From positions 1 to 32,547 of the forward strand of contig DASZOE010000514.1 in the NCBI GenBank assembly GCA_035550945.1: 32,547 bases of DNA. The letters run 5' to 3'. A program made the translations under genes and the position numbers. Below, piece by piece: positions 1,089 to 28,890 of the stretch; position 1 is the stretch's first letter, and every line of letters begins with the position of its first letter. This stretch comes from Acidimicrobiales bacterium. Its GTDB lineage: Bacteria > Actinomycetota > Acidimicrobiia > Acidimicrobiales > AC-14. The notes beneath the pieces are model-generated. The model made no database searches and had not been told where the DNA came from. It worked only from the letters and a program-made list of their open reading frames with translations.

Positions 1089-1116
1089 GGGGGAGACAGT
1101 ACGCACCGGCTGTGAC

Positions 1117-5008: not shown

Positions 5009-5013
5009 CCGCC

Positions 5014-11694: not shown

Positions 11695-13053
11695 TCACCT
11701 GCCGCAACGCACCCGGACGGAACGACCTGATGGCGAGACAGAGGGTCCATCGTCCTCCGCCACGGTGCACGTATCGCCTGGACTTGGTTCTGCCGCCGGG
11801 ACGGCACGAGCCCGACGGAGTTGCCTCGCCTTCCGGGCCTGCGTCACCACGGCGGCCAGGGCCCCGACGCCGATGCAGCTGGCGACGTCGAACGGTGCGC
11901 GCATGCGAGGGGTGGCGACCGTGACCGCGCTCAGCGCCGTGAACACCACCGCGGCGAGGACGAGTGGCCCGATGCCTCGGCCCCTCATTGCCCAGAGCCC
12001 GGCCATCCCCAGAAGGGACACGTAGCCCACGAGGGGGACGCTCAGGTGCTGCAGCGTCAGGTTGCGACCGTCGCGGCTCTCGGCGATGTCGTTGCGGCCG
12101 GCCTTGGGCTCGAACATGTTCTTGAGGCCGCCGGGCGCGATCCGGAGAACATGGCGGGGGTCGCGGCGGATCTCGGTCAGGGCGTGGCGCCGGAAGGCCG
12201 CATCCAGGTCCGCCTCGTTCGAGATGCCCGCTCTCAGGTCGGCAAAGCGGGGGTCGAAGAAGCCGTCGACGAACCCGCCTGACGCCTTGGCCTCGGGCGA
12301 GTAGATGGCGTTCAGGTTGAAACCGTTCGACGTCACCACCACCGGGGTGCCGAGGCGCTGCCAGTTCCGGATCACCCAGGGGGCGACGACCAGCGTCAGG
12401 CACACCCCGAAGGACAGGGCCCGACGCCAACCCAGTCGCCACAGGACCCATCCGGCGAGGACGACGACGAACACCTGAGCACTCGGACGGGTGAGCACCA
12501 GAAGCCCGGTCGCGGCGCCGGCCCACGCCGCCCTCCCGTCGAGCAGCAGCAGCACGACGGCCAGCAAGAGCAGCAATCCCAGGGGCTCGCTCAGCGGAGG
12601 GCCGTCGTTGAAGACCAGCGGTGGGTACACGGCCGTCACGATTCCCGTGACCACGCCCGCCGTCCGGCCGGCCAGGCGCCAGGCCGTCAGCGCCGCCAGC
12701 ACGACGACCCCCGTGCCCAAGACCACGTTGAGCGCCTCCGCCGCGCCCAGCCTGGGACCGGTGATCGCGTACACGCCGCCCAGCAACAAGGGGTAGAGCG
12801 GGGGCCTGAAGGCGGTGGCGTGGGGGTAGCCGAAGGGAAAGTCGTGCACCATGCCCCGGCCGTCGGCGATCGCGGTGGCCAGCGAGTGGTAGTGCCCGGC
12901 ATCGCTGACGGGCACGTAGCGGCGGAGCACGATCACCACGTAGAGCACTCGCACGACCAGCGCGCCGAGTCCTACCGCGAGCAGCCACCAGACCCGCCCG
13001 CTGTTCGGCGCCCCGAACGTGCGCCGGAGCCGGGAGAAGTGGGGCCGCCCCAC
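11695..13053 (-). CDS. GT-C fold membrane glycosyltransferase, PMT/ArnT-like (GT39/GT83-type), paralogue 1
   Basis: 452 aa, about 10 or more TM. Loop-1 motif VSDAGHYH followed by FRPPLYPLLLG and VYPPLVFNDGPPLSEPLG, typical of PMT_2/ArnT-like polyprenyl-phosphate-sugar transferases. The C-terminal ~50 aa are low-complexity with poorer GC3, so the true stop may once have been earlier. Confidence 0.75.
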   Translation of the reverse strand: MGRPHFSRLRRTFGAPNSGRVWWLLAVGLGALVVRVLYVVIVLRRYVPVSDAGHYHSLATAIADGRGMVHDFPFGYPHATAFRPPLYPLLLGGVYAITGPRLGAAEALNVVLGTGVVVLAALTAWRLAGRTAGVVTGIVTAVYPPLVFNDGPPLSEPLGLLLLLAVVLLLLDGRAAWAGAATGLLVLTRPSAQVFVVVLAGWVLWRLGWRRALSFGVCLTLVVAPWVIRNWQRLGTPVVVTSNGFNLNAIYSPEAKASGGFVDGFFDPRFADLRAGISNEADLDAAFRRHALTEIRRDPRHVLRIAPGGLKNMFEPKAGRNDIAESRDGRNLTLQHLSVPLVGYVSLLGMAGLWAMRGRGIGPLVLAAVVFTALSAVTVATPRMRAPFDVASCIGVGALAAVVTQARKARQLRRARAVPAAEPSPGDTCTVAEDDGPSVSPSGRSVRVRCGR

Positions 13054-14474: not shown

Positions 14475-15461
14475 GTGACGAGCGCCAACGCCGACAACCC
14501 TGCGTTGAAGATCGCCCGTGGCGGCGCGGGCGGAGATGGCCAGGAGGGCGAGGCCCGTCGCGTCGAGGTCGCCGAGACGACACCGCCGTTGTCCTTCGCC
14601 GGCCTGCTCCGCACCGCCCGCCCTCGGCACTGGGTGAAGAACCTGCTCGTCTTCGCGGCACCGGGGGCGGCAGGGCTGCTCACCGATCCGAGCGCCGTCG
14701 CGGTGGCGGCGGGAGCCTTCGCCGTCTTCTGCCTCGCCGCCAGCGGCACCTACTTCCTCAACGACGCCATCAACGTCGATGCCGACCGCCTCCACCCCAC
14801 GAAACGGCGGCGACCCGTCGCCACGGGCGCCGTGGGCGTGCGTCTGGCCACGGTGGTGGGCGGGGTGCTCCTGCTCGGCAGCATCGTCCTCGCCCTGCCC
14901 CTCGCCGGCTGGACGCTCGCCTTGGTGGTCGCCGTCTACGCCGGCCTCCAGCCCCTCTACAGCGTGTGGCTGCGGAACGTGCCCGTCGTCGACCTGGTGA
15001 CGGTGGCCGCCGGTTTCGTGCTCCGGGCCGTCGCCGGCGCCGTCGCGGTGGGCGTGCCGATCTCCCACTGGTTCCTTCTGGTCACGTCCTTCGGCTCGCT
15101 GTTCCTGGTCTCCGGCAAGCGCAGCGCCGAACACATGGACCTGGGCGAGGAACGGGCCCGTCACCGTGCGACTCTGGGTGACTACTCGCTGGGGTTCCTC
15201 CACCACGTGAGGTCGGTGTCGGCCTCGGTGGCCGTCGGGGCCTATTGCCTGTGGGCGTTCGAGCGGGGGGCGGGGGCCCCGGCCGCCGTCTGGTTCCAGC
15301 TCTCGATCGTCCCCTTCGTGCTCGTCAACCTCCGCTACGTCCAGCTGCTCGACGCCGGACGGGGGGGGTGTCCCGAGGAGCTCGTCTTCGAGGACCGCGT
15401 CCTCCAGGTGCTCGGGCTCCTGTGGCTGACGAGCGTCGCGGTGGCCATCCATGGCGGCTGA
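14475..15461 (+). CDS. ubiA: Decaprenyl-phosphate phosphoribosyltransferase (UbiA-family DPPR synthase, Rv3806c-like)
   Basis: RPRHWVKNLLVFAAPGAAGLL resembles Rv3806c IRPRQWVKNVLVLAAP. The UbiA Asp-rich motif is YFLNDAINVDADRLHPTKRRRPVATG. Located directly upstream of dprE1/dprE2. Confidence 0.85.
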   Translation: MTSANADNPALKIARGGAGGDGQEGEARRVEVAETTPPLSFAGLLRTARPRHWVKNLLVFAAPGAAGLLTDPSAVAVAAGAFAVFCLAASGTYFLNDAINVDADRLHPTKRRRPVATGAVGVRLATVVGGVLLLGSIVLALPLAGWTLALVVAVYAGLQPLYSVWLRNVPVVDLVTVAAGFVLRAVAGAVAVGVPISHWFLLVTSFGSLFLVSGKRSAEHMDLGEERARHRATLGDYSLGFLHHVRSVSASVAVGAYCLWAFERGAGAPAAVWFQLSIVPFVLVNLRYVQLLDAGRGGCPEELVFEDRVLQVLGLLWLTSVAVAIHGG

Positions 15462-16845
15462 GCCCGGCAGCGGACGACTCGTCACCGAGCTGCTCACCGG
15501 GTGGGGCCGGACGGCGCCGTCGCGGGCGTCGGTCGCCCGTCCCGCCCACCTCGAGGAGGTTCACGCCGTTCTCGGCGACCCACCCAGCCGCGGCGCCATC
15601 GCCCGGGGGCTGGGTCGCAGCTACGGCGACGCCGCCCAGTGCGCCGGCGGCACGGTGATCGACGTCACCGGGATGGCCAAGGTTCGCGGCTTCGACGGGG
15701 AGCGGGGGGTGGTCCGGGTCGATGCCGGCATCAGCCTGGGCGAGCTCACCCGCCTCGTCCTGCCGCTCGGCTGGTTCCCCCCCGTCGTGCCCGGCACCCG
15801 CCACGTCACCGTCGGGGGCGCGGTGGCCGCCGACATCCACGGCAAGAACCACCACGTGGACGGCAGCTTCTGTGACCACGTCGAGGGCTTCACCCTGCTC
15901 ACGCCCACGGGGACGGTCGAGGTCACGCCGGACTCCGAGCCCGACCTGTTCTGGGCGACGGCGGGGGGGATGGGCCTGACCGGCGTGGTCGGGGAGGTCA
16001 CCATTCGTCTCCAGCCCGTAGAGACCGCCTTCGTGCGTGTGGACACCGAGCGGGCGTGCGACCTCGACGACGCCCTGGCCCGGATGGAAGAGGGTGACCA
16101 TCGCTACCGCTATTCGGTGGCGTGGATCGACTGCCTGGCTCGGGGTGCGTCCCTGGGGCGCGCCGTGCTGACCCGGGGAGGGCATGCCAGCCTCGACGAC
16201 CTACCCGTCAAGGTGCGGCCAAAGGCGCTCCGCGCCGAGCCGAGGGTCGTCGGCACCGCGCCACCCTGGGCACCTCAGGGGCTCCTGAACCAAGCCTCGG
16301 TGCGGGCCTTCAACACTGTCTGGTTCCACAGGGCCCCTTCCCTCGAGCGCGGCCGCCTCCAACCCCTTCACCGCTTCTTCCACCCCCTCGACGCGGTGCA
16401 GGGGTGGAACCGCGTCTACGGCGAGCGCGGCTTCGTCCAGTACCAGTTCGTCGTGCCGGTGGGCCAGGAGCGGGCTCTGGCCCACGCCGTCGAGCGCCTG
16501 AGCGCGACCCGGTGCCCCTCGTTCCTCGCCGTTCTGAAGCGGTTCGGCGGCCACAACGACGGCCCTCTCTCCTTCCCCATGGCCGGGTGGACGCTCGCCC
16601 TCGACCTCCAGGTCGGCCCGCCTCGCGTCGGGCCCGTCCTGGACGAGCTCGACGAGGTGGTAGCCGAGGCCGGAGGCCGCGTCTACCTGGCCAAGGACGC
16701 CCGACTGCGCCCGGAGCTGCTGCCGGTGATGTACCCCCGCCTGGACGAGTGGCGCCGCGTGCAGGCCAAGGTCGACCCGACGGGCGTGCTGCGGTCCGAC
16801 CTGGCCCGCCGGCTCGGGCTCGTGGAACGGCAGGGTGTCGGGTGA
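15451..16845 (+). CDS. dprE1: Decaprenylphosphoryl-beta-D-ribose 2'-oxidase DprE1 (FAD)
   Basis: 464 aa, colinear with M. tuberculosis Rv3790 as I recall it: LTGWGRTAPS, IARGLGRSYGDAAQ, VTVGGAVAADIHGKNHH, LFWATAGGMGLTG, FFHPLD..GWNRVYG..GFVQYQFVVP, YLAKDARL, MYPRLDEW..V..KVDP. The ATG at 15451 overlaps the ubiA 3' end by 11 nt. Confidence 0.9.
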   Translation: MAAEPGSGRLVTELLTGWGRTAPSRASVARPAHLEEVHAVLGDPPSRGAIARGLGRSYGDAAQCAGGTVIDVTGMAKVRGFDGERGVVRVDAGISLGELTRLVLPLGWFPPVVPGTRHVTVGGAVAADIHGKNHHVDGSFCDHVEGFTLLTPTGTVEVTPDSEPDLFWATAGGMGLTGVVGEVTIRLQPVETAFVRVDTERACDLDDALARMEEGDHRYRYSVAWIDCLARGASLGRAVLTRGGHASLDDLPVKVRPKALRAEPRVVGTAPPWAPQGLLNQASVRAFNTVWFHRAPSLERGRLQPLHRFFHPLDAVQGWNRVYGERGFVQYQFVVPVGQERALAHAVERLSATRCPSFLAVLKRFGGHNDGPLSFPMAGWTLALDLQVGPPRVGPVLDELDEVVAEAGGRVYLAKDARLRPELLPVMYPRLDEWRRVQAKVDPTGVLRSDLARRLGLVERQGVG

Positions 16846-17603
16846 GGGACGCCCTCGGACGTCCGCAGTCGCTGCTCCTGCTCGGCGGCACCTCCGAGAT
16901 CGGGTTGGCCACGGCTCGGGCTCTCGTCTCCCGGCGGACCAGGACGGTGCTGCTGGCCGGGAGGCACCTCGACGCTCTGGAGAAGGCGGCTCGAGGGGTC
17001 CGGGAGGCAGGTGCGGAACGGGTGGAGGTCCTCGCCTTCGACGCCGATGACACCCGTTCCCACGCCGCCTTCGCCGACCACGCCTTCACGCACTACGGCG
17101 ACATCGACGTCGTGCTCCTCGCCTTCGGCGTCCTCGGTGACCAGCGTGCGGCGGAGGAGGATCCCGAGAGGGCCGTCGCTCTGCTCCGAACCAACATGGT
17201 GGGTGCCGCCTCGGTCGGTCTCCACTCCGCCCGGCACCTGCGCCGGCAGGGGCACGGCACCCTCGTCGTGCTCTCATCGGTGGCGGGCGAGCGAGCCCGG
17301 CGCTCGAACTTCGTCTACGGCGCCTCCAAGGCCGGCCTCGACGCCTTCTTCCAGGGCCTGGGCGACAGCCTGTGGGGCTCGGGCGTGAGGGTCCTCGTCG
17401 TGCGGCCGGGCTTCGTCCGGACCAAGATGACGGCCGGGCTCGAGCCCCCGCCGCTGTCGACGACGCCGGAGCGGGTGGGCGACGTCATCGTCCGGGCCGT
17501 CGAGACCGGTGCCGAGGAAGCCTGGGCCCCACCGCCGCTGCGCTTCGTCATGATCGGCCTGCGCCACCTCCCGCGCCCGCTGTTCCGGAAGCTGAAGGTG
17601 TGA
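16842..17603 (+). CDS. dprE2: Decaprenylphospho-2'-keto-ribose reductase DprE2 (SDR)
   Basis: GTG at 16842 overlaps the dprE1 stop (GTGA). 253 aa: PQSLLLLGGTSEIGLA, VLSSVAGERARRSNFVYGASKAGLD, VRVLVVRPGFVRTKM, LRHLPRPLFRKL, closely parallel to Rv3791. The 16122 start in the track is an artefactual extension inside dprE1. Confidence 0.9.
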   Translation: MRDALGRPQSLLLLGGTSEIGLATARALVSRRTRTVLLAGRHLDALEKAARGVREAGAERVEVLAFDADDTRSHAAFADHAFTHYGDIDVVLLAFGVLGDQRAAEEDPERAVALLRTNMVGAASVGLHSARHLRRQGHGTLVVLSSVAGERARRSNFVYGASKAGLDAFFQGLGDSLWGSGVRVLVVRPGFVRTKMTAGLEPPPLSTTPERVGDVIVRAVETGAEEAWAPPPLRFVMIGLRHLPRPLFRKLKV

Positions 17604-19699: not shown

Positions 19700-19712
19700 C
19701 ACGCCTGGGAGC

Positions 19713-20993
19713 TTAGATGTCGTGCCCGGCCCTGAGCCCGGCCCGCCGGGTCGGGCGCCGGCGCCAGAGGTCCAGAAGCCGGAATCGCGCCGTCGGGCCG
19801 GCCAGCTCGGCGAGGCCACCACCGACCGCGATGCAGCAGACAAGGTCGAGGGGCGCCCGCAACCGGGGCGCGGGCACGCTGGCGAGGGTGGCGCCGGAGA
19901 GCACCACGGCGGCGATGACGAGCGGACCGATGCCAGGGCGGCGTCGGAGGAGCCACATCCCGGCCACCCCGGCGGCGATCATCAGCGGGACGACGGGCGA
20001 GGTGAGGTCTCGGAGGCGCAAGTTGCGTCCGTCGGCCGACTCGGGAGCCCGGTTGCGGCCGGGCTGGAGCTCCAGGAACGCCGGCAGGTTGCCGCGCACC
20101 ACGTCGACCACCTGGAGCGGGTCATCGCGCAGCGATGCCAGCGCGTGGCGTCGCAGGGCGGCGTCGAGCTCGACCTCGTTGGTGATCCCTTCCCGGAGGT
20201 CGGCGAAACGGGGGTCGAAGACGGCGTCGACGAACCCCCGGGATGCCCTGGCCTCGGGGGAGTAGATGGCGTTGAGGTTGAAGCCGTTGGAGGTCACCAA
20301 CACCGGGCTGCCCATACGGATCCAGTTGCGCCCGACCCACGGGGCCAGGACCAGGGCCACACACCCTACGTAGGCGAGGGCGCGACGCCACCCCAGCCGC
20401 CACAGCACCCAGCCGATCAAGGACACGACGAAGAACTGTGCGCTCGCCCGGCTGAGCACGAGCAGTCCACTGGCAACCCCCGCCCAGCCTGCCCGGCGCT
20501 CGATCAGGAGCAGGACCGTGGCGAGGAGGAGGAGCAGCCCCAGCGGCTCGCTCAGTGGCGGACCGTCGTTGAACACCAGGGGCGGGTACACCGCGGCCAG
20601 GCCTCCGGCGACCACGCCGGCCCACCGTCCGGCCAGGCGCCACGCCACGATGGCGGCCATCAGGACGACCGCGGTGCCGAGGACCACGTTGAGCGCCTGA
20701 GCGGCGCCGACCTTGGGGCCCGTGACGGCGTAGACGGCGCCGAGCAGCAGGGGGTACAGGGGAGGCCGCCAGGCGGTGTGATGCAGGAAGTCGAACGGGT
20801 ACGTGTGCGCCACGCCATGGCCGGCGGCGACCTCGATGGCGATGGTGTGGTAGTGGTACGCGTCGCTGACCGGCGTGTAGTCACGGAGCACCGACAGCAC
20901 GTACAGCACCCGCACGACCAGCGCGGCGAGGCCCACGACAACGAGCCAACGGGCGGCACGGCGCCGTTGGGCATGAAAGGGCGGAGGGATCAC
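19713..20993 (-). CDS. GT-C fold membrane glycosyltransferase, PMT/ArnT-like, paralogue 2 of 11695..13053
   Basis: Only the C-terminal 426 codons of track ORF 19713..21815 look coding. GTG at 20993 gives (M)IPPPFHAQRRRAARWLVVVGLAALVVRVLYV.., which aligns along its whole length with paralogue 1. Long identical runs include VYPPLVFNDGPPLSEPLGLLLLLA, GWVLWRLGWRRAL, VTSNGFNLNAIYSPEA and DPRFADLR. Confidence 0.75.
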   Translation of the reverse strand: MIPPPFHAQRRRAARWLVVVGLAALVVRVLYVLSVLRDYTPVSDAYHYHTIAIEVAAGHGVAHTYPFDFLHHTAWRPPLYPLLLGAVYAVTGPKVGAAQALNVVLGTAVVLMAAIVAWRLAGRWAGVVAGGLAAVYPPLVFNDGPPLSEPLGLLLLLATVLLLIERRAGWAGVASGLLVLSRASAQFFVVSLIGWVLWRLGWRRALAYVGCVALVLAPWVGRNWIRMGSPVLVTSNGFNLNAIYSPEARASRGFVDAVFDPRFADLREGITNEVELDAALRRHALASLRDDPLQVVDVVRGNLPAFLELQPGRNRAPESADGRNLRLRDLTSPVVPLMIAAGVAGMWLLRRRPGIGPLVIAAVVLSGATLASVPAPRLRAPLDLVCCIAVGGGLAELAGPTARFRLLDLWRRRPTRRAGLRAGHDI

Positions 20994-21003
20994 CGAGGCT
21001 AAC

Positions 21004-24000
21004 TTGGCGGCTGGTCCGGGCGGGTCTCGACCCGGGTACCGTCGCCCGGTGCCATCGGGCAGTACGGCGTCGCGCCTACGGCTCGCGCTGATCGCTCTGG
21101 GAGCGTTCAGCGCGCTCGCTTCGCTGCTCGTGCCGCTGGCTCCCGTGCAGCAGCAGATGGCCACGTTCAGCTGGCCGGTCGACGGCTCGACCGCCCCGGT
21201 CGGGGTCCAGCTCTTCCCGTACCACCCGGAGTCGCTGACCGCCCGCTTCTCCTGTGAGACGGTAGGCGACGTCGCCCGGCGCATGCCCCGCGGCACGGTC
21301 TTCGCCACGGCGCCGAGCGACACCCCGGAGGGACGCCACGACGGCCTCGTGGTCGAGGTGTCCGGCGACACGCTCCTGGTGACCAGTCGTGGCCGGGTCC
21401 TGTTGACCGAACCGGTCGGGTCGACGACGGGCTGCGCCTGGCGGCTGAACTCGGACAGCAGCGTCACCGAGATCACCCGCGACGGCGTCCGCATGGCCCG
21501 CCTGGCCGAAGACCTGCGGCCCCAGGTGGTCGGCGTCTTCTCCGACCTCGACCCGGCGCAGGACGGCACCACCGGGCTGTCGGTCCAGATCCGGAGCGAC
21601 ACCCGGTTCCAGACGTCGCCGACGCCCTGGAAGCACGCGCTGATGGGGTTGGCCATCCTCGGCCTCGTCGCCGCCTTGGGGGCGCTCCGCCGGTTGGATC
21701 GTCGGGCCGAAACGACGACGGCGCGGGTGGCACCACGCGGATGGTGGCGGCCTCGGCTGCCCGACCTGCTCGTGGTCGGCGTCCTCGGGGTCTGGGCGGT
21801 CATCGGTCCGTTCACCGTGGACGACGGCTACATCCTCACCCAGGTGAAGGCGCGCCGGGGGAGCGGATTCGTCGGCAACTACTACCGCTGGTTCAACGCT
21901 CCCGAAGCCCCGTTCGGCTTCTTCTACGACCTGTTCTATGTGTGGGGGAAGGTCAGCCGGTCGCTGTTGTGGATGCGCGTCCCGGCCCTCCTGGCCGGCG
22001 TGACCAGCTGGCTGCTCGTCAGCCGGCTGGTGTTGCCCGCGCTCGGCGAAGGGCCGGCGACGAGCCGGGGCGTGCGCTGGGTGGCGGCCGTCGCGTTCCT
22101 CGCCGCGTGGATGCCCTACGACAGCGGCCTCCGCCCGGAGCCATTCGTCGTTCTGGGCACCCTGGCCACCTTGTGCGCGGTGGAGCGCACCTTGGCCAGC
22201 GAGCGTCTGCTGCCCCTGGCGCTGGGCGTCATCGCGGCCGTGGCCACGGTGGCGGTCACGCCCACCGGCGTCATTGCGCTCCTGCCCCTGCTGGTGGCGC
22301 CCCGGCGTCTGGCCGCAGTGATCTGGGACCGCCGGGACCTCCGGTGGGCGCCGCTGGCGGCCGTCCTCCTCGCCAGCGGGCTCAGTGTGCTGACGCTGAT
22401 GTTCTACGACCAGACACTCGGTGCGGTTGTGGAGGCGACCCGGGTGCGCAACGCCATCACTCCGGGCAGCTGGGACCGGGAGGTACTCCGGTACGGGCGC
22501 CTCCTCGACCCGCTGAGCCCGGAGGGGTCCTTCGCCCGGCGGATGCCCGTACTTCTCCTCGTCGGGGGCCTCGTCCTCGTCACCGCGACGCTCTTGCGCA
22601 ACCGCCGCGTCCCCGGAGTCGAGCGCGCCCCGGCGCAGCGCCTCCTGCTCGTCACGGGGCTCGCCTTCGCCGTCATCTCGGCGACCCCGACCAAGTGGAC
22701 GCACCACTTCGGCGCGTTCGCAGGGCTGGCGGCGGCGGTGCTGGCGCTGACCGCGTGGACGACGGCGACGGAGCTGTTCAGGTCCACGAGGCCCCGGGCG
22801 GTTGCGCTCGTGGGGCTGTCCGGCGTCCTCGCTCTGTCGCTCGCGGCGGCCAACCACTGGTGGTGGGTCTCTGTGCTGGACCCTCCGTGGCGCGACGAAC
22901 GGATCAGCGTCCTGGGCGTGCCGGTGCACACCCCCTTGGTGGTGGTGACCGTCCTGGTCTGTCTCATGGCCGTCGTGCTCGCGGGCTGGCGCGAGGCGCG
23001 GGGGCGCCCCCCCCGTCCCAGCCGCCTCCCGCCGCCGAGCGTCCTCCTGGCGGTCGGGCTCTGCCTGTCGGTCGCCATCCAGCTCGTCACCTTCCTGGTC
23101 GCGCCGGTCGAGCAGCGGAGGACCTATTCGATCGCCGAGCAGAACGTGAAGTCGGTGCTCTCGAGCAGCTGCGGGTTGGCCGACTCGGTGATGATCGAGG
23201 AGAGCGCCCAGGCCGGCGCCCTCTTTGCCGCTCCGGGGGGACTCGGGAGCGCCGAACCCGGGATCTTCGAGCGCAACGGAGGCTTCGCCCCCGAGCACCC
23301 GCCACTCCACCGGTTCGGCACCGAGGGCCTGGTGTTCGACGTCCCCGTCTGGGGCAGCCGGGTCGGCGAGCGGACCGACGGCGCCACCGGCACGGCCCGC
23401 AGCGGCTGGTACCAGATCGGGGACCGGTTGGGCGCGGCCAGCGCGCCGCTCGTCATCGCCGTCGCCGGTCGCACCCACGGCGGCAATCGCCTGGCCGTGG
23501 AGCTCGGCCGGCGCCGAGGTGATCGAGTCGATCGGTTGGAGACGATCGAGGTCGACGAGTTCGCCCATCGGCACCGGAACCGCATCGACGCCGCCCTCAA
23601 CCGGTTGCCGGTCGACACGCCGAGCTGGAGGGACATCCGGATCGACGTGCGCGACAAGCTGCCTCCCGACGCCGACGTGCTGCGCGTCGTGGCGACGGAC
23701 GGCAGCGTGGGCACGGGCGGGTGGTTGGCCTTCAGCGCGCCCCGGGCCCCCGTGCTCAGGACGTTGACGGACGCGGTCGGCGGCGACGCGGCTGTCGTCC
23801 TCGACTGGCCGGTGGGGGCGGCTTACCCCTGCGTGCAGCCGGCCACGCTGGCCCTCGGCGAGGTGCAGATGCCCCAGTGGCGCATCGCCGCCGCACTCTC
23901 CTCTCTGGGCGACACCGCGTTCGCCAAGGACCACGCCGGCCCGTTCGCCCCGTCCGTCGTGCTCGCCGACCAGGTCGAGCTCCCCACGTATCTGGCCAAC

Positions 24001-24153
24001 GACTGGAACGCCGAAGCGGCCAGCGTGTTCCGCATCGACGCGCCTCCGTTGGGACGACCGACGGTGTCGCTCGGCCGACGGGTGGAATGGGGCTGGTCGG
24101 CCCGGCCCCATCTCGTCATTCCCGGCATCGACGACGTGGGGACCGTCGAGTAG
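21004..24153 (+). CDS. Emb-type arabinosyltransferase (GT-C, GT53-like; EmbA/B/C family)
   Basis: About 1,035-1,049 aa. N-terminal FSWPVDG; GT-C loop motif VDDGYILTQVKARRGSGFVGNYYRWFNAPEAPFGFFYD, parallel to the Emb DDGYIL..NYfRWfg.pE.PFGW block; about 13 TM; a soluble C-terminal ~300 aa domain. The start is either TTG 21004 or in-frame GTG 21049. Confidence 0.85.
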   Translation: MAAGPGGSRPGYRRPVPSGSTASRLRLALIALGAFSALASLLVPLAPVQQQMATFSWPVDGSTAPVGVQLFPYHPESLTARFSCETVGDVARRMPRGTVFATAPSDTPEGRHDGLVVEVSGDTLLVTSRGRVLLTEPVGSTTGCAWRLNSDSSVTEITRDGVRMARLAEDLRPQVVGVFSDLDPAQDGTTGLSVQIRSDTRFQTSPTPWKHALMGLAILGLVAALGALRRLDRRAETTTARVAPRGWWRPRLPDLLVVGVLGVWAVIGPFTVDDGYILTQVKARRGSGFVGNYYRWFNAPEAPFGFFYDLFYVWGKVSRSLLWMRVPALLAGVTSWLLVSRLVLPALGEGPATSRGVRWVAAVAFLAAWMPYDSGLRPEPFVVLGTLATLCAVERTLASERLLPLALGVIAAVATVAVTPTGVIALLPLLVAPRRLAAVIWDRRDLRWAPLAAVLLASGLSVLTLMFYDQTLGAVVEATRVRNAITPGSWDREVLRYGRLLDPLSPEGSFARRMPVLLLVGGLVLVTATLLRNRRVPGVERAPAQRLLLVTGLAFAVISATPTKWTHHFGAFAGLAAAVLALTAWTTATELFRSTRPRAVALVGLSGVLALSLAAANHWWWVSVLDPPWRDERISVLGVPVHTPLVVVTVLVCLMAVVLAGWREARGRPPRPSRLPPPSVLLAVGLCLSVAIQLVTFLVAPVEQRRTYSIAEQNVKSVLSSSCGLADSVMIEESAQAGALFAAPGGLGSAEPGIFERNGGFAPEHPPLHRFGTEGLVFDVPVWGSRVGERTDGATGTARSGWYQIGDRLGAASAPLVIAVAGRTHGGNRLAVELGRRRGDRVDRLETIEVDEFAHRHRNRIDAALNRLPVDTPSWRDIRIDVRDKLPPDADVLRVVATDGSVGTGGWLAFSAPRAPVLRTLTDAVGGDAAVVLDWPVGAAYPCVQPATLALGEVQMPQWRIAAALSSLGDTAFAKDHAGPFAPSVVLADQVELPTYLANDWNAEAASVFRIDAPPLGRPTVSLGRRVEWGWSARPHLVIPGIDDVGTVE

Positions 24154-24243: not shown

Positions 24244-25284
24244 ATGACAGACGAGTTGGTGGTCGTCAGCGGGGCAGGCGGCTTCATCGGCGGCCACCTG
24301 GTGGCCGACATGCTCCGACAGGGTCGGAGGGTCAGAGCCGTCGACGTCAAGCCGCCGGCCCACTGGTACCAGCTGCATCCCCGCGCCGAGAACCTGGTGC
24401 TCGACCTCACCGAGCTCGGCGCCTGCCGGGAGGCCGTCCGGGGCGCGGCCGAGGTCTACAACCTCGCGGCCGACATGGGCGGGATGGGCTTCATCGAGAA
24501 CCACAAGGCAGAGTGCATGCTGTCGGTCCTCATCAACACCCACCTGCTCGTCGCGGCGAGGGACGCCGGGGTGAGGTCGTACTTCTTCGCCAGCTCGGCA
24601 TGCGTCTACGCGGCCGACCGGCAGACGTCTCCGGACGTCACCGCCCTCAGGGAGGGCGACGCCTACCCGGCCATGCCCGAGGACGGCTACGGCTGGGAGA
24701 AGCTCTTCAGCGAGCGGATGTGCCGGCACTTCCAGGAGGACTTCGGTCTGGAGACGGTCGTCGCCCGCTATCACAACGTGTACGGCGAGCACGGCACCTA
24801 CCGCGGCGGCAGGGAGAAGGCTCCGGCGGCGATCTGCAGGAAGGTGATCGAGGCCAAGCTGTCGGGGCGCCACGAGATAGAGATCTGGGGCGACGGCCAG
24901 CAGACCCGCAGCTTCATGTACATCAGCGACTGCATCTACGGCACGCAACGGATCATGGCGAGCCGGATCCCGGAACCGATCAACCTGGGCAGCTCGGAGC
25001 TGGTCACCATCGACGGGCTTGTGGACATCGTCGAAGGCATCGCCGGCATCCACCTGCAGCGCAACTACAACCGGCGCGCGCCACTGGGAGTGCGGGGCCG
25101 CAACAGCGACAACACCCTCATCCGTCGCTACCTCGGCTGGGAGCCGTCCGTCCCGCTCGAAGAGGGGATCGAGAAGACCTACCGCTGGATCTACGAAGAG
25201 ATGACCGGCGTCGAGGGGGCGGCGGTCAGAAATGGCTCCGGTAACGGTCGAATGCTTCCCGGGTCTGTCGGGGCAGGAAGCTGA
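24244..25284 (+). CDS. NAD-dependent sugar-nucleotide epimerase, GDP-mannose 3,5-epimerase (GME)-like SDR
   Basis: ATG at 24244 preceded by GGGAAGGAAG. GAGGFIGGHL; NLAADMGGMGFI, ASSACVY, GYGWEKL, GGREKAPAAICRK, WGDGQQTRSF and GVRGRNSDN all parallel plant/bacterial GME blocks as I recall them (NLAADMGGMGFI, GGREKAPAAFCRK, GVRGRNSDN). Confidence 0.75.
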   Translation: MTDELVVVSGAGGFIGGHLVADMLRQGRRVRAVDVKPPAHWYQLHPRAENLVLDLTELGACREAVRGAAEVYNLAADMGGMGFIENHKAECMLSVLINTHLLVAARDAGVRSYFFASSACVYAADRQTSPDVTALREGDAYPAMPEDGYGWEKLFSERMCRHFQEDFGLETVVARYHNVYGEHGTYRGGREKAPAAICRKVIEAKLSGRHEIEIWGDGQQTRSFMYISDCIYGTQRIMASRIPEPINLGSSELVTIDGLVDIVEGIAGIHLQRNYNRRAPLGVRGRNSDNTLIRRYLGWEPSVPLEEGIEKTYRWIYEEMTGVEGAAVRNGSGNGRMLPGSVGAGS

Positions 25285-26137
25285 ACAGGGCGTCGGCGTC
25301 CCCGGCGAGCGCTTCCACGATGGCCAGGTTGTACTCGTAGCCGATGTACTCCTGCCGCATGTCGACGACAGGATCGTGGACGTTGCGCTCCTGGACCACC
25401 GAGGGCTTCCCGTACACGACGCTGGCCCCCTTGGCCTGGACGTAGTAACCGGCCCAGATGTCGTCCATGCGGCCGACGTGGGGGAAGAGGAAGTAGTCGC
25501 GGAGCCAGCGTCCGGCCAGGAAGGTGTTCTGCGAGTTGAAGGGGCTGACGACGTCGGCGGCGATCGGGAACATTGCCGCGTCGAACCGGCACCGAGGGTC
25601 GTACTGCATGCGACAGATGGCGTCGACGTCGGGGTCCCCGTCCCAGAAGTCCGCCTGGATGTCGGCGCGCACCACGTCCCGGACGGAGGTGGAGTAGTCC
25701 CGCTTGGACAGGAGCTGCAGTGGGTAGCCCCGGTGCCACAGGTGGGGGTAGTTGGTGGCGCCCACCGGGTCGAAGGCCGGTAGGCCGGTCGTGAAGACGT
25801 TGGCCTCGACCTCCCGGTCGAGGAGCAGGTCCGTCCCCCATCCGGCGCAGGGGACGTTGTCGTCGTCGACCACCGCCACCACTTCGGCGCCCATCTCGTG
25901 GGCGACGAGGAACCCGTAGTTCCGCCGCTGGATGCAGTTCCAGCCGATGAGCCCCGAGAGCCGCTTGTCGATGCTCTCCTGCTCCTCGGGGCCGACGTAC
26001 CGCCCCGCCTCCAAGCGGTAGTCCTCGGGCGTCTTCAGGTCACCCACCACCACGAGCTGCCATCCGGGCATCGAGTCGAAGAGGCGGACCGCCTTCGTCG
26101 GGGGATTGATCGTCGTCGTCACGATGACCCGGGTCAC
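25226..26137 (-). CDS. DUF288/STELLO-like putative glycosyltransferase (GT75-related)
   Basis: Only the last 303 codons of track ORF 25226..27556 look coding. GTG at 26137 overlaps the upstream GT2 stop (GTGA). The sequence VIVTTTINPPTKAVRLFDSMPGWQLVVVGDLKTPEDY...RRNYGFLVAHEMGAEVVAVVDDDNVP follows the DUF288 pattern (TTI.PT.AV..L....W.LVVVGD.KTP....RKN.GYL.AI.HGA..I...DDDN) as I remember it. Confidence 0.55.
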   Translation of the reverse strand: MTRVIVTTTINPPTKAVRLFDSMPGWQLVVVGDLKTPEDYRLEAGRYVGPEEQESIDKRLSGLIGWNCIQRRNYGFLVAHEMGAEVVAVVDDDNVPCAGWGTDLLLDREVEANVFTTGLPAFDPVGATNYPHLWHRGYPLQLLSKRDYSTSVRDVVRADIQADFWDGDPDVDAICRMQYDPRCRFDAAMFPIAADVVSPFNSQNTFLAGRWLRDYFLFPHVGRMDDIWAGYYVQAKGASVVYGKPSVVQERNVHDPVVDMRQEYIGYEYNLAIVEALAGDADALFSFLPRQTREAFDRYRSHF

Positions 26138-26907
26138 CGCACGCTCCCGTCGACGCCCGGCCTCAGCATGGCGGACGGAGGCTTGAGGCGATTCGTGACC
26201 AGCGTGCCGATGTACCTGGCCTGGGTGGCAACGGAGTTCTGGGACTCTCCGTCCCGCCTCGGGTTCCAGAAGGTCGGTATCTCGATGACCTCGACGCCCA
26301 GGCGCAGGGGCTTCAGCACCGTCTCGAGCAGGAACTCGTGACGGAGGCCCTCCCAACGGATCGCCTTCACCAGCGGGGTGGGGAAGAGGCGGTAGCCGAA
26401 GGTGGCGTCGGTGAGCCGGGTGCGGTAGACGACCGACGTCATGCGTTGGAACACCCAGTTCAAGCCGACCCGGACCGGGCCGTAGCCGGAGAACCCCCCG
26501 CCCGTCGCCCACCGCGACGCGGTCACGACGGCTCGGGGGTTCGCCCTGGCCACCTCGACGAACTGGGGCACGATCGCGGGATCGGTCTCGAGGTCGCTGG
26601 CCATCATCAGCACGTGGCTGGCGGTCGCCAGATCGAACGTCTCCCGGATCGCACCGCCGAGGTACGGCAGCCGCTGGTGGTGGATCCGGAGGCGGTCGCC
26701 GAACTGCTCGTGCAGACCCTCGCACCTCCTGAGGCTCTCCCTGGTCGTCCGATCGCAGACGACCACGAGGACCTCGGCGATGTCCTTGTCGCTCGTCTCC
26801 CCGAGGATCTTCGCGGTCTCGTCCAGCGAGTCCGTCTCGGTCACGACCGGAAGGACGACGCTCGTTCCTGAGAACGTGTGGTCGGCCGGAACAGGTGCGT
26901 CCAACAC
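26134..26907 (-). CDS. Family-2 glycosyltransferase, DPM1/polyprenyl-phosphate glycosyltransferase-like
   Basis: 257 aa from GTG 26907 (AGAGG 5 nt upstream). SVVLPVVTE.., MMASDLETDP (DxD-type) and ATFGYRLF..EFLLETV are typical of dolichyl/polyprenyl-phosphate hexose synthases. Confidence 0.8.
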   Translation of the reverse strand: MLDAPVPADHTFSGTSVVLPVVTETDSLDETAKILGETSDKDIAEVLVVVCDRTTRESLRRCEGLHEQFGDRLRIHHQRLPYLGGAIRETFDLATASHVLMMASDLETDPAIVPQFVEVARANPRAVVTASRWATGGGFSGYGPVRVGLNWVFQRMTSVVYRTRLTDATFGYRLFPTPLVKAIRWEGLRHEFLLETVLKPLRLGVEVIEIPTFWNPRRDGESQNSVATQARYIGTLVTNRLKPPSAMLRPGVDGSVR

Positions 26908-27145: not shown

Positions 27146-27553
27146 GTGAAAACTTTCACGAGCGGAAACGAAGACCAGCCGCCAGCCCGAACGGGCACCG
27201 GCCCGGACGTCGACGTGCTGATCCGGGCCCTGGATGCCAGCGGCCGCTACCGGCGCGACTCGCGGCTGGGTCGGATCTACCACCGGGGGGCGACGTCCTA
27301 CCGGGAGCTCCGGCCCACCGACAGCTTCCACGTCGTCATCGACCGTGGCCGGGTGTCGGTGCACGTCGATCGCATCTCGCCCATCAAGTCGCGGTCCGAC
27401 GGCTCGGCGCGTCTCTCGCTCACGCGCGTCGTCGCCCACAACCTGGCCGGGGCCCACGGCGAGCTCGCCCGGCGCGTGCGCCGCCGCGTCGGCGCCGACC
27501 GCGGCGCCGTCGGCGCCCCGGTGGTCCTCACCGTTCGCCTGGGCGACTCGTGA
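27146..27553 (+). CDS. Hypothetical small protein (135 aa), translationally coupled to the downstream acyltransferase
   Basis: GTG at 27146 with GGTGGAG 4 nt upstream. Arg-rich soluble protein (..SFHVVIDRGRVSVHVDRISPIKSR..). I recognise no family. The stop overlaps the next gene's GTG (GTGA at 27550-27553). Confidence 0.5.
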   Translation: MKTFTSGNEDQPPARTGTGPDVDVLIRALDASGRYRRDSRLGRIYHRGATSYRELRPTDSFHVVIDRGRVSVHVDRISPIKSRSDGSARLSLTRVVAHNLAGAHGELARRVRRRVGADRGAVGAPVVLTVRLGDS

Positions 27554-28890
27554 CACGCTCGGGCACCGTCACCTTCAGCGTCATCGACGAGGCCGTCCAC
27601 CTGCTCGACACGGAGGCGGCGCCCTGGAGCATCCAGCTCGAGGTCCGGGTGGCCGGGCGCCTCGACGAGGCGCGCCTGCGGGACGCCTTCGGCCGGGCGC
27701 TCGCCCTCCACCCCATGGCCAGGGTCCGAAAGGTGGCGTCACGGCGCACTGAGCACACGGACCGCTGGGAGATCACGCCCGAGGCCGGCGTCGACCCCCT
27801 CCGGGTCGTCGACTGCCCCGACGACGGCGGCGTCGCCCGTGTCCGGGAGGAGCTGCAGGGCCTCGCCGTCCCCCTCGCCGAGTCGCCCCCGCTGCGGGCC
27901 CGCCTGGTCCACGACCCCGGCGGCGACCTGCTCATGCTCAACGCCAACCACGCCGCCATGGACGGCTTCGGGGCACTGCGGGTCCTGCGGTCGGTGGCCC
28001 ACGCCTACGCCGAGGAGCCCGAAGCCGGCGCTGGGCCCGACCCGATCGAGGCCCGGGCCCGGCTCGGCGAGCTCGGCGGCGTCGGGGGCCGCATCCGGGG
28101 CCGGCGGCACCTGGCGCTGGCGGGCAAGCTCACAGACGTCGTGGCGCGCCCGGCCCGGGTTGCAGCCCAAGGCGCCAGCGACCACGCCGGCTACGGATTC
28201 CATCACCTGGTCCTCCCCGCCTCCCTGACGCGGGCGCTCGTCGAGCTGCGGCATCCCGGGACGGTCAACGACGTCCTGCTCGCCGCCCTGCACCTGGCCA
28301 TCGCCGCCTGGAACGCGCGGCGCGGCGAGCGCTGTGGGCGCATCGGGGTACTCGTGCCCGCCAACCTGCGCCCGCCGGCCTGGCGCCGCGAGGTCGTGGG
28401 GAACTTCTCCCTGCCGGCCCGGGTGTCCACCAACCGCCGGCACCGCCGGCAGCCGGAGTCGGCCCTGCTGGCGCTCACCGCCCAGACCCAGCGCAAGAAG
28501 GAGGTGGGGATGGGCACCGCCCTCCTCGAGGTGCTCGGGCGCGCCGACCGCCTACCGCTGTGGGCCAAGCAGGCCATGATCATGTCCCTGCCCCTCGGGG
28601 GCAACCGCCTGGTCGACACGGCCATGCTCTCGAACCTTGGCCCACTGCAGGACCCACCGTCGTTCGGCACAGGGGCAGGGCCGACGGTCGAGGCTTGGTT
28701 CTCGCCTCCGGCCCGCATGCCCCTCGGGCTCACCGTGGGGGCCGTGACTCTCGACAGCCGGCTCCACGTGGTCCTGCGCTACCGCCACCGCCTGCTCGAC
28801 GCCCGAGCCGCCGGTGTCTTCGCCGACGAACTCGTGGCCGAGGTGGTCGGCCTCGTCGAGCGCACGGCGTCGAAGTCGCGGGCGTCCTGA
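27550..28890 (+). CDS. Condensation-domain / PapA- or WS-DGAT-like acyltransferase
   Basis: 446 aa. The active-site block LMLNANHAAMDGFGAL is the HHxxxDG motif with the first His replaced by Asn. Size and the downstream ..NLGPL.. region fit stand-alone C-domain acyltransferases. Confidence 0.65.
   Translation: MTRSGTVTFSVIDEAVHLLDTEAAPWSIQLEVRVAGRLDEARLRDAFGRALALHPMARVRKVASRRTEHTDRWEITPEAGVDPLRVVDCPDDGGVARVREELQGLAVPLAESPPLRARLVHDPGGDLLMLNANHAAMDGFGALRVLRSVAHAYAEEPEAGAGPDPIEARARLGELGGVGGRIRGRRHLALAGKLTDVVARPARVAAQGASDHAGYGFHHLVLPASLTRALVELRHPGTVNDVLLAALHLAIAAWNARRGERCGRIGVLVPANLRPPAWRREVVGNFSLPARVSTNRRHRRQPESALLALTAQTQRKKEVGMGTALLEVLGRADRLPLWAKQAMIMSLPLGGNRLVDTAMLSNLGPLQDPPSFGTGAGPTVEAWFSPPARMPLGLTVGAVTLDSRLHVVLRYRHRLLDARAAGVFADELVAEVVGLVERTASKSRAS

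Follow-up and report, generated by a model that had tools for sequence, protein, structure and literature searches.

Possible route to a lipid-linked L-galactofuranose donor encoded by an epimerase gene and a GT2-mutase gene pair in an Acidimicrobiales bacterium

The window analysed in this study is the whole of contig DASZOE010000514.1 (32,547 nucleotides; assembly GCA_035550945.1) from an Acidimicrobiales bacterium. Three of its genes raise the question of which activated sugar they would make and which enzymes would use it. An SDR gene (24244..25284, plus strand, 346 aa) faces two minus-strand genes, which encode a protein of 303 aa (25226..26137) and a soluble, DPM1-sized GT2 of 257 aa (26134..26907). 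An earlier note had taken the products for a GDP-mannose 3,5-epimerase (GME), a DUF288/STELLO-like protein and a polyprenyl-phosphate-hexose-synthase-like GT2, and had proposed that they supply a lipid-linked L-hexose to neighbouring GT-C enzymes. It is possible, at slightly less than an even chance in our judgement, that the three genes serve periplasmic (extracytoplasmic) glycosylation as the branch that builds an L-galactofuranose (L-Galf) donor.

Gene arrangement and the epimerase

The positions of the three genes agree with the earlier reading and were matched by an independent gene call on the identical public contig (L056), which gave the same products of 346, 303 and 257 aa. The epimerase gene is convergent with the two-gene operon, as had been claimed, and the 3' ends of the epimerase and middle genes share 59 nt (25226..25284). 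On the minus strand, the GTG start of the middle gene and the TGA stop of the GT2 gene overlap in the GTGA at 26134-26137, and the two genes are a translationally coupled pair. A 4-bp overlap or very tight spacing is also found in related loci, e.g. L057, L050 and L137. The ATG of the epimerase gene at 24244 is preceded by the ribosome-binding site GGGAAGGAAG, and the GT2 gene starts with GTG at 26907, with the Shine-Dalgarno-like GAGAAGAGG.

The three peptide blocks on which the epimerase assignment had been based, NLAADMGGMGFI, GGREKAPAAICRK and GVRGRNSDN, are all present in the translation of 24244..25284. In a phmmer search of the PDB the best matches were plant GMEs (8sg0, E 2.9e-85; 2c59, E 9e-83), whereas the next family followed at E 2e-27. 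All eight diagnostic residues of AtGME (S143, C145, Y174, K178, N203, K217, R243 and R306; PMC8787198) are kept in the alignment. By homology, the SDR is thus a genuine GME, and as the first step, which is well supported by this homology, it would turn GDP-D-mannose into GDP-L-galactose.

The middle protein as a mutase homologue

The DUF288/STELLO label of the middle protein was not borne out. Profile comparison of 25226..26137 gave no Pfam match to STELLO (PF03385) even at E<=10, and its sole Pfam match was RGP/GT75 (PF03214) at a sub-threshold E of 0.015. MtdL is a far better match than any STELLO protein. Searches of the PDB retrieved MtdL at E 5e-15 with the single sequence and at 2e-29 with the family profile. 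The AF2 model (pLDDT 86) has the same fold as MtdL (Foldseek E 6e-19, TM 0.76) and also matches rice UAM2, a UDP-arabinopyranose mutase (E 3e-9, TM 0.61). These two are the only close solved relatives; the remaining matches were generic GT-A folds with TM <0.45. MtdL (7XPR-7XPV and 8HL8) is the metal-dependent, FAD-independent GDP-L-Galp/GDP-L-Fucp mutase that has a role in making the L-Galf unit of the antibiotic A201A (PMC9937993).

We compared 13 functional MtdL residues, i.e. those assigned by structure or mutagenesis to metal, diphosphate or sugar binding or to catalysis, with family alignments of 30 and 42 sequences. Eleven of the 13 are invariant. Among the family-invariant residues, R72, D91-D93, R136 and D170 correspond to MtdL R90, D109-111, R159 and D195, and S202, Q203, R223, D226, R251 and H254 to MtdL S228, Q229, R257, D260, R289 and H292. 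The two proteins differ in that the window protein is 23% identical to MtdL and about 70 residues shorter, the Mn-ligand His287 is replaced by an invariant Gln (Q249), and Asp87, which is catalytically essential and contacts the sugar, is replaced by Ile (I69). At the positions of MtdL T13 and S86 it looks MtdL-like (Thr, Cys) as opposed to RGP-like (Pro, Asp), the T13 match being from pattern only. The N-terminal base-binding residues could not be matched to those of MtdL by sequence, so the predicted GDP specificity rests on the partnership with GME. With plant RGP/UDP-L-arabinopyranose mutases (GT75, PF03214) the protein has in common the fold, the DXD motif and the catalytic arginine, and in both cases a furanose would be supplied for wall polymers, but the plant enzymes are UDP-specific.

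We therefore regard the middle protein, from its sequence and modelled fold, as an MtdL/RGP-type NDP-pyranose-to-furanose mutase homologue, and it is predicted to be a GDP-L-galactopyranose to GDP-L-galactofuranose mutase. By homology with MtdL, it would contract the ring with the help of a divalent metal, the sugar being bound covalently to an arginine in the intermediate. With this assignment the donor predicted for the module becomes L-galactofuranose instead of an L-hexopyranose; the earlier lipid-linked L-hexose idea is sharpened, not overturned.

It is quite unlikely that the original version holds as it stood, with the middle protein a STELLO/RGP-like self-glycosylating or accessory glycosyltransferase rather than a mutase and the GT2 loading L-galactopyranose or L-gulopyranose. 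Asp87 and the Mn-ligand His287 are indeed lost, and in AtRGP5 loss of the latter accompanies inactivity; autoglycosylation is the sole activity of some RGPs. The protein does belong to a wider GT75-like group that includes STELLO, whose GT-A domain is distantly related: P0344, a 1162-aa two-domain relative of the mutase family, matches STELLO at E 1.7e-23. STELLO proteins themselves reside in the Golgi membrane and act on the assembly of cellulose synthase. However, the family-invariant catalytic arginine R136 and base D226, together with D170, S202, Q203, R223, R251 and H254, argue for a working MtdL-type active site. MtdL is also a far better match than other glycosyltransferases, and channelling of a disfavoured furanose product readily accounts for the tight coupling to the GT2.

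The GT2 and its membrane-protein neighbours

The closest folds to the GT2 are those of polyprenyl-phosphate glycosyltransferases, in line with the earlier description. Pfam gave Glycos_transf_2 (E 7e-9), and the PDB sequence match was PfDPMS (E 2e-5); the best sequence matches are dolichyl/undecaprenyl-phosphate glycosyltransferases. The top NCBIfam matches were all polyprenyl-phosphate glycosyltransferases, every score being far below the cut-off. The AF2 model (pLDDT 92) matched DPMS (Foldseek E 2e-14, TM 0.75, rmsd 2.5), followed by ArnC (3e-11), GpgS (1e-10) and GtrB (2e-9). Judging from the model, the GT2 folds most like DPMS, ArnC and GtrB, and it is predicted to be a polyprenyl-phosphate L-galactofuranosyltransferase. 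From its fold and context, it would move the furanose onto decaprenyl or undecaprenyl phosphate to give polyprenyl-phospho-L-galactofuranose, and immediate transfer would pull the unfavourable mutase equilibrium forward.

GT2 enzymes can also add a furanose directly, as GlfT1 and GlfT2 do with Galf from UDP-Galf. Accordingly, GDP-L-Galf might be made but used by the GT2 as a cytoplasmic furanosyltransferase acting on a growing lipid-linked or other glycan, which is then exported as polymer with no polyprenyl-phosphate monosaccharide being formed. We consider this unlikely. Several observations would fit it: neither a TM helix nor a clearly amphipathic helix is predicted in the GT2, its counterpart of the DPMS 'DAD' motif has Ala in place of the leading Asp (A-S-D105), the soluble GT-A enzyme GpgS is an almost equal fold match, and at L050 and L054 the module has Wzm/Wzt-type ABC exporters and GT4 enzymes as neighbours. 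Against it, the best fold and sequence matches (DPMS, ArnC, GtrB, AglJ and PgfS) all act on polyprenyl phosphate, and the GT2 has the size of DPM1, without an extra acceptor-binding domain. Moreover, GT-C-like proteins, which need lipid-linked monosaccharide donors, are enriched beside the pair.

Of 99 loci, 38 have multi-TM ORFs directly adjoining the module, and such ORFs cover 24% of the bases next to it but 9.7% at a distance of 7-10 kb; those with Pfam matches hit PMT_2, GT87, DUF2142 or DUF2079. AftB_C proteins lie near the module in L050 and L139. In the window, a small multi-TM protein of about 426 aa, a putative GT-C, is encoded at 19713..20993 (minus strand), likely starting at the in-frame GTG at 20993; its PMT_2 similarity (E 0.005-0.012) is under the Pfam gathering score. 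A paralogue with at least seven predicted TM segments (11695..13053, minus strand) is 62% identical to it. Their counterpart at 3436-4680 in L138 (61% and 59% identity, respectively) is directly upstream of GT2 and mutase in an operon of DUF2079, GT-C, GT2 and mutase genes in the same orientation, with a convergent GME gene. An Emb-type GT-C arabinosyltransferase of about 1049 aa (21004..24153, plus strand; Arabinose_trans 3.6e-151, Arabino_trans_C 9e-47, Arabino_trans_N 4e-31) lies immediately upstream of the GME gene, co-directional with it across a 90-nt gap in which no terminator-like site was seen. Among the loci scanned with the Emb query, Emb adjoins the module in this window and its copy L056 alone.

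About 7 kb from the module, in the same cluster, the window encodes the complete decaprenyl-phosphate-arabinose (DPA) route on the plus strand: a UbiA-family decaprenyl-phosphate phosphoribosyltransferase (14475..15461; NF008978, 355 bits, cut-off 207; Pfam UbiA 3e-19), the decaprenylphosphoryl-beta-D-ribose oxidase DprE1 (15451..16845; NF053785, 594 bits, cut-off 500; Pfam FAD_binding_4 and ALO) and the reductase DprE2 (16842..17603; NF053786, 334 bits, cut-off 250), whose GTG start overlaps the DprE1 stop (GTGA). The UbiA-family enzyme catalyses the first step of the canonical route. At L051, an unrelated locus, DPA genes likewise adjoin the module. Emb therefore has its canonical donor and no need of a new one. 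The proposal of a lipid-linked L-hexose donor is a reasonable reading, because GT-C-like membrane proteins are recurrent neighbours. The two small PMT_2-like proteins are better-supported users, because their orthologue shares the GT2-mutase operon in L138, which comes from a related genome. After flipping (the window yielded no candidate for a flippase), GT-C-type enzymes would, from this context, transfer L-Galf to a glycan of the cell envelope; the PMT_2-like paralogues are the best candidates, and the co-transcribed Emb-type enzyme may also do so.

Conservation of the pair and the choice of sugar

At 73 of the 110 loci that could be assessed, the GT2 gene is directly upstream of the mutase gene. 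These loci span more than 10 phyla, among them Actinomycetota, Acidobacteriota, Verrucomicrobiota, Planctomycetota, Proteobacteria, Bacteroidota, Cyanobacteria and Chlorobi. The pair is a generic cassette, and the accompanying SDR, GME in this window, probably decides the sugar. No characterised member of the mutase's large family (3262 clusters at 50% identity) and no experimental report on the conserved pair were found in the literature. Where each flank extends for at least 3 kb (62 loci), a GME orthologue is present at 15 loci, a member of another family, SDR2, at 24, and neither at 23; no locus has both. SDR2 is often found in place of GME while the mutase is still conserved, so the family's sugar may not be L-galactose in general.

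In this window, too, the mutase substrate might be GDP-L-fucose, GDP-D-arabinopyranose or a UDP-pentose, with the adjacency of GME reflecting a shared glycan; we think this unlikely. Such a substrate would agree with the acceptance of GDP-L-fucose by MtdL and Hyg20, the loss of Asp87, and the conservation of the mutase (55-72% identity) across partner types that interleave on its tree, including SDR2, which lacks the Cys/Lys acid-base pair of GME. L-Galp has D-Arap as its pentose analogue, and the clusters in which the module lies are of the arabinan type. However, GME orthologues (42-75% identity) recur at mutase loci in several unrelated clades and abut the mutase 3' end at six loci, the mutual exclusion of GME and SDR2 is expected if each supplies the substrate, and A201A provides a precedent for pairing GME with a GT75 mutase.

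That precedent comes from Marinactinospora thermotolerans, where MtdM, the partner of MtdL, is reported by Zhu et al. 2017 to be a GME. Here, too, a GME-type epimerase is paired with a GT75 mutase, and GDP-L-galactofuranose is the predicted product. MtdL and Hyg20 (from hygromycin A biosynthesis), the only characterised bacterial GT75 enzymes, are both from antibiotic clusters, but it is very improbable that the window's GDP-L-Galf serves a nucleoside or aminoglycoside-type natural product. The window lacks PKS, NRPS and tailoring genes, the neighbours form a cell-envelope cluster of Emb, DPA genes and membrane glycosyltransferases, and the pair occurs in envelope-type contexts as distant as Prochlorococcus and Verrucomicrobiota. 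The window mutase also differs from MtdL in its partners, which are a DPM1-like GT2 and GT-C-like proteins instead of a Leloir transferase that acts on a small molecule.

The pathway that we tentatively prefer, though with a little less than even confidence, runs from GDP-Man via GDP-L-Galp, then GDP-L-Galf, to polyprenyl-P-L-Galf and transfer by GT-C. L-Galf shares the C1-C4 stereochemistry of D-Araf and differs from it by one more CH2OH, at C5; therefore the product would be a hexose homologue of decaprenyl-P-arabinose. As with DPA and Emb/Aft in Corynebacteriales, a lipid-linked furanose would serve GT-C enzymes outside the membrane. DPA, however, starts from PRPP and takes shape on the lipid itself, through the action of UbiA, a phosphatase and DprE1/DprE2, whereas the furanose here would form at the nucleotide-sugar level before the GT2 loads the lipid. 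The logic of a polyprenyl-phosphate monosaccharide made by a cytoplasmic enzyme, a flippase and a GT-C is that of GtrA/B/V, ArnC/ArnT, mycobacterial Ppm1 and PpgS(Rv3631)/Rv3779, and the same three components make up the PPPRS-MATE-GT136 pentofuranose system, in which auxiliary SDR epimerases diversify the sugar (PMC11127046). None of these relies on a GT75 mutase or on a donor that is a hexofuranose, and the window GT2 lacks the TM helices that GtrB and ArnC have at the C-terminus.

In the searchable literature L-galactofuranose was found only in antibiotic A201A and in no bacterial envelope glycan. If the proposed pathway is true, it would be a new variation on known periplasmic glycosylation systems, with a lipid-linked L-galactofuranose donor for use outside the cell, built around a GT2-mutase pair that is kept in many bacterial phyla.

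The epimerase and the GT2 glycosyltransferase

The window has a GC content of approximately 72%, and at the protein level the closest named relatives found in the database search are Acidimicrobiales and Actinomycetota MAGs (75-77% identity). ORF calling confirmed the three genes claimed in the earlier note: an SDR gene at 24244..25284 (+), a gene for a 303-aa protein at 25226..26137 (-) and a gene for a 257-aa GT2 protein at 26134..26907 (-). The same three gene calls were made on an identical 9.3-kb public contig (Logan). The reported GTGA overlap at 26134-26137, in which the stop codon of the GT2 gene lies over the start of the next gene, can be read directly from the sequence. The SDR gene and the 303-aa gene are convergent, as had been described, and share 59 nt at their 3' termini (25226-25284), whereas in the related loci L057, L137 and L138 the corresponding ends abut or overlap by a few bp only. 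A promoter/terminator scan gave no signal above background.

The SDR had been read as a GDP-mannose 3,5-epimerase (GME) rather than a dehydratase or 4-epimerase, on the strength of three peptide blocks, all of which are present in its translation. The protein matches Pfam Epimerase (6e-40), and in the PDB search plant GME structures matched it at E-values of 3e-85 to 9e-83, with the next family, UXS-like, at 2e-27. It has the features of extended SDRs, namely the Gly-rich NAD motif and the S...YxxxK triad (S143, Y174 and K178 in AtGME), and its GAGGFIG, ASSAC and YGWEK segments align with plant GME (alignment A5). Diagnostic residues of GME are listed in a review (PMC8787198). The acid-base pair C145/K217, the acidifying R306, N203 and R243 (AtGME numbering) are all kept in the alignment with plant GME, and the blocks carrying them are ASSACVY, GGREKAPAAICRK, GVRGRNSDN, RYHNVYG and QTRSF. 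UDP-glucose 4-epimerase, GDP-mannose dehydratase and fucose synthase were rejected as identities, all being far weaker than GME, and among NCBIfam models of other activities none reaches or nears its cut-off. Judged from its sequence, the SDR is accepted as a GME.

The GT2 matches Pfam Glycos_transf_2 at 7e-9, and its only PDB sequence match is the Pyrococcus dolichyl-phosphate mannose synthase (DPMS; 2e-5). All of its weak NCBIfam matches belong to the polyprenyl-phosphate glycosyltransferases (dolichyl-P hexose transferase, AglJ and PgfS; ArnC is also among those of the orthologue in L051, a locus on a metagenomic contig), the best scoring 23.5 bits against a cut-off of 375, so that no curated cut-off is reached. 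With the AlphaFold model (pLDDT 92), Foldseek found DPMS (5mlz) at E 2e-14, TM 0.75 and rmsd 2.5 A, followed by ArnC (3e-11), GpgS (~1e-10) and GtrB (2e-9). The fold matches to DPMS, ArnC and GtrB are consistent with the polyprenyl-phosphate type proposed earlier. An ordinary polyprenyl-phosphate mannose synthase was rejected as identity: identity in sequence to DPMS is ~18%, the scores lie far under every curated cut-off, and the fixed pairing with the mutase argues against it as well. Some traits sit less well with the polyprenyl-phosphate type. The DPMS motif D-A-D...Q reads A-S-D105-L-E107 in the GT2, with the last Asp alone kept and Gln replaced by Glu. No TM segment is predicted, and none of the helices in the model is clearly amphipathic; their hydrophobic moments do not stand out and say little on membrane association. 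TM helices are likewise absent from human DPM1 and mycobacterial Ppm1. In size and fold the GT2 resembles DPM1, but it is not an ordinary polyprenyl-phosphate mannose synthase.

The middle protein as a candidate GT75-type mutase

The product of 25226..26137 had been labelled a DUF288/STELLO-like protein. Pfam returned no STELLO match for it, even at E<=10, and this identity was dropped and replaced by that of a GT75 mutase. The Pfam RGP (GT75) match itself is sub-threshold (E 0.015; 14.9 bits vs a gathering cut-off of 23.8). In the PDB search, four entries named 'Transglycosylse' were matched at 5e-15 by the single sequence and at 2e-29 by a 30-sequence family profile. These entries (7XPR-7XPV and 8HL8) are MtdL, a Mn-dependent and FAD-independent GT75 mutase, which in the biosynthesis of A201A turns GDP-L-galactopyranose into GDP-L-galactofuranose and which also accepts GDP-L-fucose (PMC9937993). 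With the AlphaFold model of the middle protein (pLDDT 86), Foldseek ranked MtdL first (E 6e-19, TM 0.76) and rice UAM2, a UDP-arabinopyranose mutase, second (E 3e-9, TM 0.61); the rest were generic GT-A proteins with TM <0.45. The Foldseek comparison showed that the GT-A domain as well as the GT75-specific core and helical domains are present in the model.

Residues were mapped onto MtdL numbering by HMMER alignment, and invariance was judged in two alignments of the family, with 30 and 42 sequences. The DXD motif D91-D92-D93 (MtdL D109-D111), the catalytic/autoglycosylated arginine R136 in WHRGYP (MtdL R159) and the general base D226 in GRMDDIW (MtdL D260) are invariant. So is the diphosphate/sugar-binding set R72, D170, S202, Q203, R223, R251 and H254, which corresponds, in this order, to R90, D195, S228, Q229, R257, R289 and H292 of MtdL. 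Two positions deviate. The Mn2+ ligand H287 of MtdL, which is conserved in active RGPs and lost in the inactive AtRGP5, is replaced by an invariant Gln, Q249, whose amide oxygen could substitute as metal ligand. Asp87, essential in MtdL, is replaced by the nearly invariant Ile69; it is Ser in plant RGPs, so this position differs between GT75 subfamilies. Residues 1-50 fail to align to MtdL (HMMER family profile; 100-residue query), and for the guanine-recognition sites (MtdL T13, I15, D40 and N42) T8-x-I10 and D33-x-K35 are candidates by pattern only, as HMMER leaves the N-terminus unaligned. Given these matches to MtdL, the protein belongs to a distinct, uncurated branch of GT75-like mutases, and its MtdL-type active site is almost complete.

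Two relatives have a longer architecture. P0344 (1162 aa) has two tandem mutase-like domains and a Pfam STELLO match of 1.7e-23, and links the mutase family to DUF288. P0280 (615 aa), considered as a possible GT2-mutase fusion (Rosetta-stone evidence), carries a mutase domain and ~300 extra residues, in which there is a marginal GT2 match without similarity to the window GT2.

Spread of the cassette and its SDR partners

The mutase family is very large. One search at E<=1e-5 gave 5208 clusters (90% identity), and an exhaustive search gave 3262 representatives at 50% identity, including 534 that score E<=1e-30; none of the best 120 members listed has an informative name. Genome and metagenome scans yielded 132 non-redundant mutase loci, whose record titles name Actinomycetota, Acidobacteriota, Verrucomicrobiota, Planctomycetota, Alpha- and Gammaproteobacteria, Bacteroidetes, Geobacteraceae, Bdellovibrionota, Prochlorococcus, Chlorobi, Binatia and Omnitrophota. 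In 73 of the 110 assessable loci, the gene immediately upstream of the mutase, in the same orientation, encodes an orthologue of the GT2 (30-78% identity).

The SDR partner was surveyed in the 62 loci that have 3 kb or more of sequence on each side. A GME orthologue (>=40% identity) was found in 15 of them and a second SDR family, SDR2, in 24; no locus had both and 23 had neither. An extended SDR of some kind is found no more than 3 kb away in 46 of these 62 loci; in 41 of 96 loci, one adjoins the 3' end of the mutase. SDR2 members are 53-80% identical to one another and 25-28% identical to GME; they retain the Tyr/Lys dyad (YxxxK) and are without Cys145, Lys217 and Asn203 of GME. On the mutase tree, partner type is clade-consistent yet interleaved. 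The GT2 pairing, the mutual exclusivity of GME and SDR2 and the interleaved tree show that GT2 and mutase form a conserved cassette whose SDR partner is exchangeable. Because SDR2-type cassettes have an almost unchanged mutase, the identity of the sugar across the whole family is uncertain.

SDR2 stands directly downstream of the mutase, in place of GME, at L051:10928-11905, L053:10914-11990 and ~30 other loci. This conserved extended-SDR family has a 'TGGIDPxxGWPLF' insertion, and its best PDB matches are UDP-GlcA 4-epimerases and GME (1e-16 to 1e-20).

Surroundings of the module and the proposed furanose route

Directly upstream of GME on the + strand is an Emb-type arabinosyltransferase gene (GT-C, GT53; Arabinose_trans 3.6e-151, N-terminal domain 4e-31, C-terminal domain 9e-47). 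The two genes are 90 nt apart, and no terminator-like site lies between them. In the other loci scanned, no Emb adjoins the module. A complete operon for decaprenyl-phospho-arabinose (DPA), unmentioned in the earlier note, lies at 14475-17603 (+), 7 kb away from the module. It encodes a UbiA-type phosphoribosyltransferase, DprE1 and DprE2, which score 355, 594 and 334 bits against NCBIfam cut-offs of 207, 500 and 250, respectively, and the DprE1 and DprE2 genes share a GTGA overlap at 16842-16845. In tuberculosis, the synthesis of DPA is a validated drug target. With the DPA operon in the window, Emb already has its canonical donor, and the link of the proposed donor to Emb is weakened. The idea of a lipid-linked L-hexose donor itself survives, and is now more specific in that a furanose would be made by way of a GT75 mutase.

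In L051, on an unrelated 1.4-Mb metagenomic contig, the module is divergent from UbiA-HAD, GtrA-like, DprE1-like and DprE2-like genes, so that the cassette stands next to a polyprenyl-P-pentofuranose pathway in a second, independent case. DprE2-like and HAD genes are found at the edge of L139. The cases of the window, L051 and L139 therefore make the association with lipid-linked furanose biosynthesis recurrent, not general. The L051 genes, with HAD and UbiA as a fusion, occupy L051:5012-8940 (-) beside GT2-mutase-SDR2, and L052 is a second copy. In the window, a HAD-family hydrolase at 19019-19843 (-), between the DPA operon and a small putative GT-C gene, could be the DPPR 5'-phosphatase; comparison with the HAD domain that is joined to UbiA in L051 showed no similarity, and this role is unsupported.

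Several membrane proteins are candidates for the use of a lipid-linked donor. ORFs for which 7 or more TM segments are predicted adjoin the module in 38 of 99 loci, and the base coverage of multi-TM ORFs falls from 24% within 1.5 kb of the module to 9.7% at 7-10 kb. Pfam matches among 71 such ORFs were to PMT_2 (14), TPR repeats (~12), DUF2142 (3) and GT87 (2). L057, L137 and L138 are the loci most closely related to the window. Three PMT_2-like proteins surround GT2-mutase/GME in L057, and one lies directly upstream of the GT2 in L137. The L138 operon has the order DUF2079, GT-C (414 aa), GT2 and mutase, with GME convergent. Its GT-C is 59-61% identical to two multi-TM paralogues of the window, at 19713..20993 (-) and 11695..13053 (-). 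These putative GT-C proteins are 62% identical to each other and bracket the DPA operon; their similarity to PMT_2 is below the Pfam threshold. AftB_C-domain proteins occur in L050 and L139, and Wzm/Wzt exporters in L050 and L054. No homologue of the GT-C family that adjoins the module in L001-L005 was found in the window. Two further multi-TM proteins, at 13134-14417 (+) and 17620-18978 (-), have at least 7-9 predicted TM segments without a Pfam or NCBIfam match and are possibly additional GT-C enzymes or flippases; no flippase was identified in the window.

Just beyond the GT2, a 446-aa protein encoded at 27550-28890 (+) has weak matches to Condensation and wax-ester-synthase/DGAT models (Pfam 1e-5, NCBIfam 4e-10) and may be an envelope-lipid acyltransferase. 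The margin of the glycan cluster, at 9770-10903 (+), holds a DUF222 + HNH endonuclease gene, of a kind common in actinobacterial genomes. A long ORF at 4645-7518 (+), which follows an ABC ATPase gene (4265-5008), gives an extremely Arg/Gly/Pro-rich translation without a family match in the one frame used. A DUF2397 gene (PF09660, 7e-79) at 3-1118 (-) is cut off by the window edge; in some Wadjet-type anti-plasmid systems, the JetA-like component is of this family.

The following pathway can be proposed. GME would convert GDP-Man to GDP-L-Gal, a step that we grade as strong. The GT75 mutase would then convert GDP-L-Galp to GDP-L-Galf, as suggested by MtdL and by the GME/mutase precedent of A201A. 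From its fold and context, the coupled GT2 would capture L-Galf on polyprenyl phosphate. Such capture would explain the tight GT2-mutase coupling, because the equilibria of such mutases favour the pyranose. Finally, to judge from the context, GT-C enzymes outside the membrane would use the lipid-linked L-Galf. L-Galactose matches D-arabinose in its stereochemistry at C2-C4, which makes L-Galf the hexose homologue of D-Araf; its occurrence in an arabinan-type cluster would thus be chemically sensible.

Our overall hypothesis, which we regard as possible rather than probable, is that the GT2 + GT75-mutase pair is a widespread and so far unrecognised route to lipid-linked furanose donors, in which ring contraction takes place on the nucleotide sugar and the furanose is captured at once on polyprenyl phosphate. 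Here the product would be decaprenyl-phospho-L-galactofuranose, the hexose homologue of DPA, used by Emb/Aft-like or small PMT_2-like GT-C enzymes to place L-Galf in an arabinan-type wall polymer; in other phyla, a swap of the partner SDR would alter the sugar. In concept, the proposed pathway stands closest to the Gtr, ArnC/ArnT and PpgS/Rv3779 systems and to the PPPRS-flippase-GT136 pentofuranose system. In the PPPRS-flippase-GT136 system, auxiliary SDR epimerases diversify the sugar (PMC11127046). In the searchable literature, we found L-Galf reported in A201A only and not in a bacterial envelope glycan; for a bacterial GT75-GT2 module and for lipid-linked hexofuranose donors, the literature search led no further than the MtdL papers.

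To our knowledge, furanoses are supplied to bacterial envelopes today by two routes, the FAD-dependent UDP-Galp mutase and the on-lipid build from PRPP that yields DPA and related pentofuranoses. If our hypothesis is true, there would be a third, in which a polyprenyl-phosphate transferase is coupled to a metal-dependent GT75 mutase. It would predict new L-hexofuranose-containing glycans and would offer glycoengineers ready-made rare lipid-linked furanose donors. Moreover, a family of thousands of conserved proteins now annotated as hypothetical, from bacteria of soil, freshwater and the sea (Prochlorococcus among them), would gain a function.
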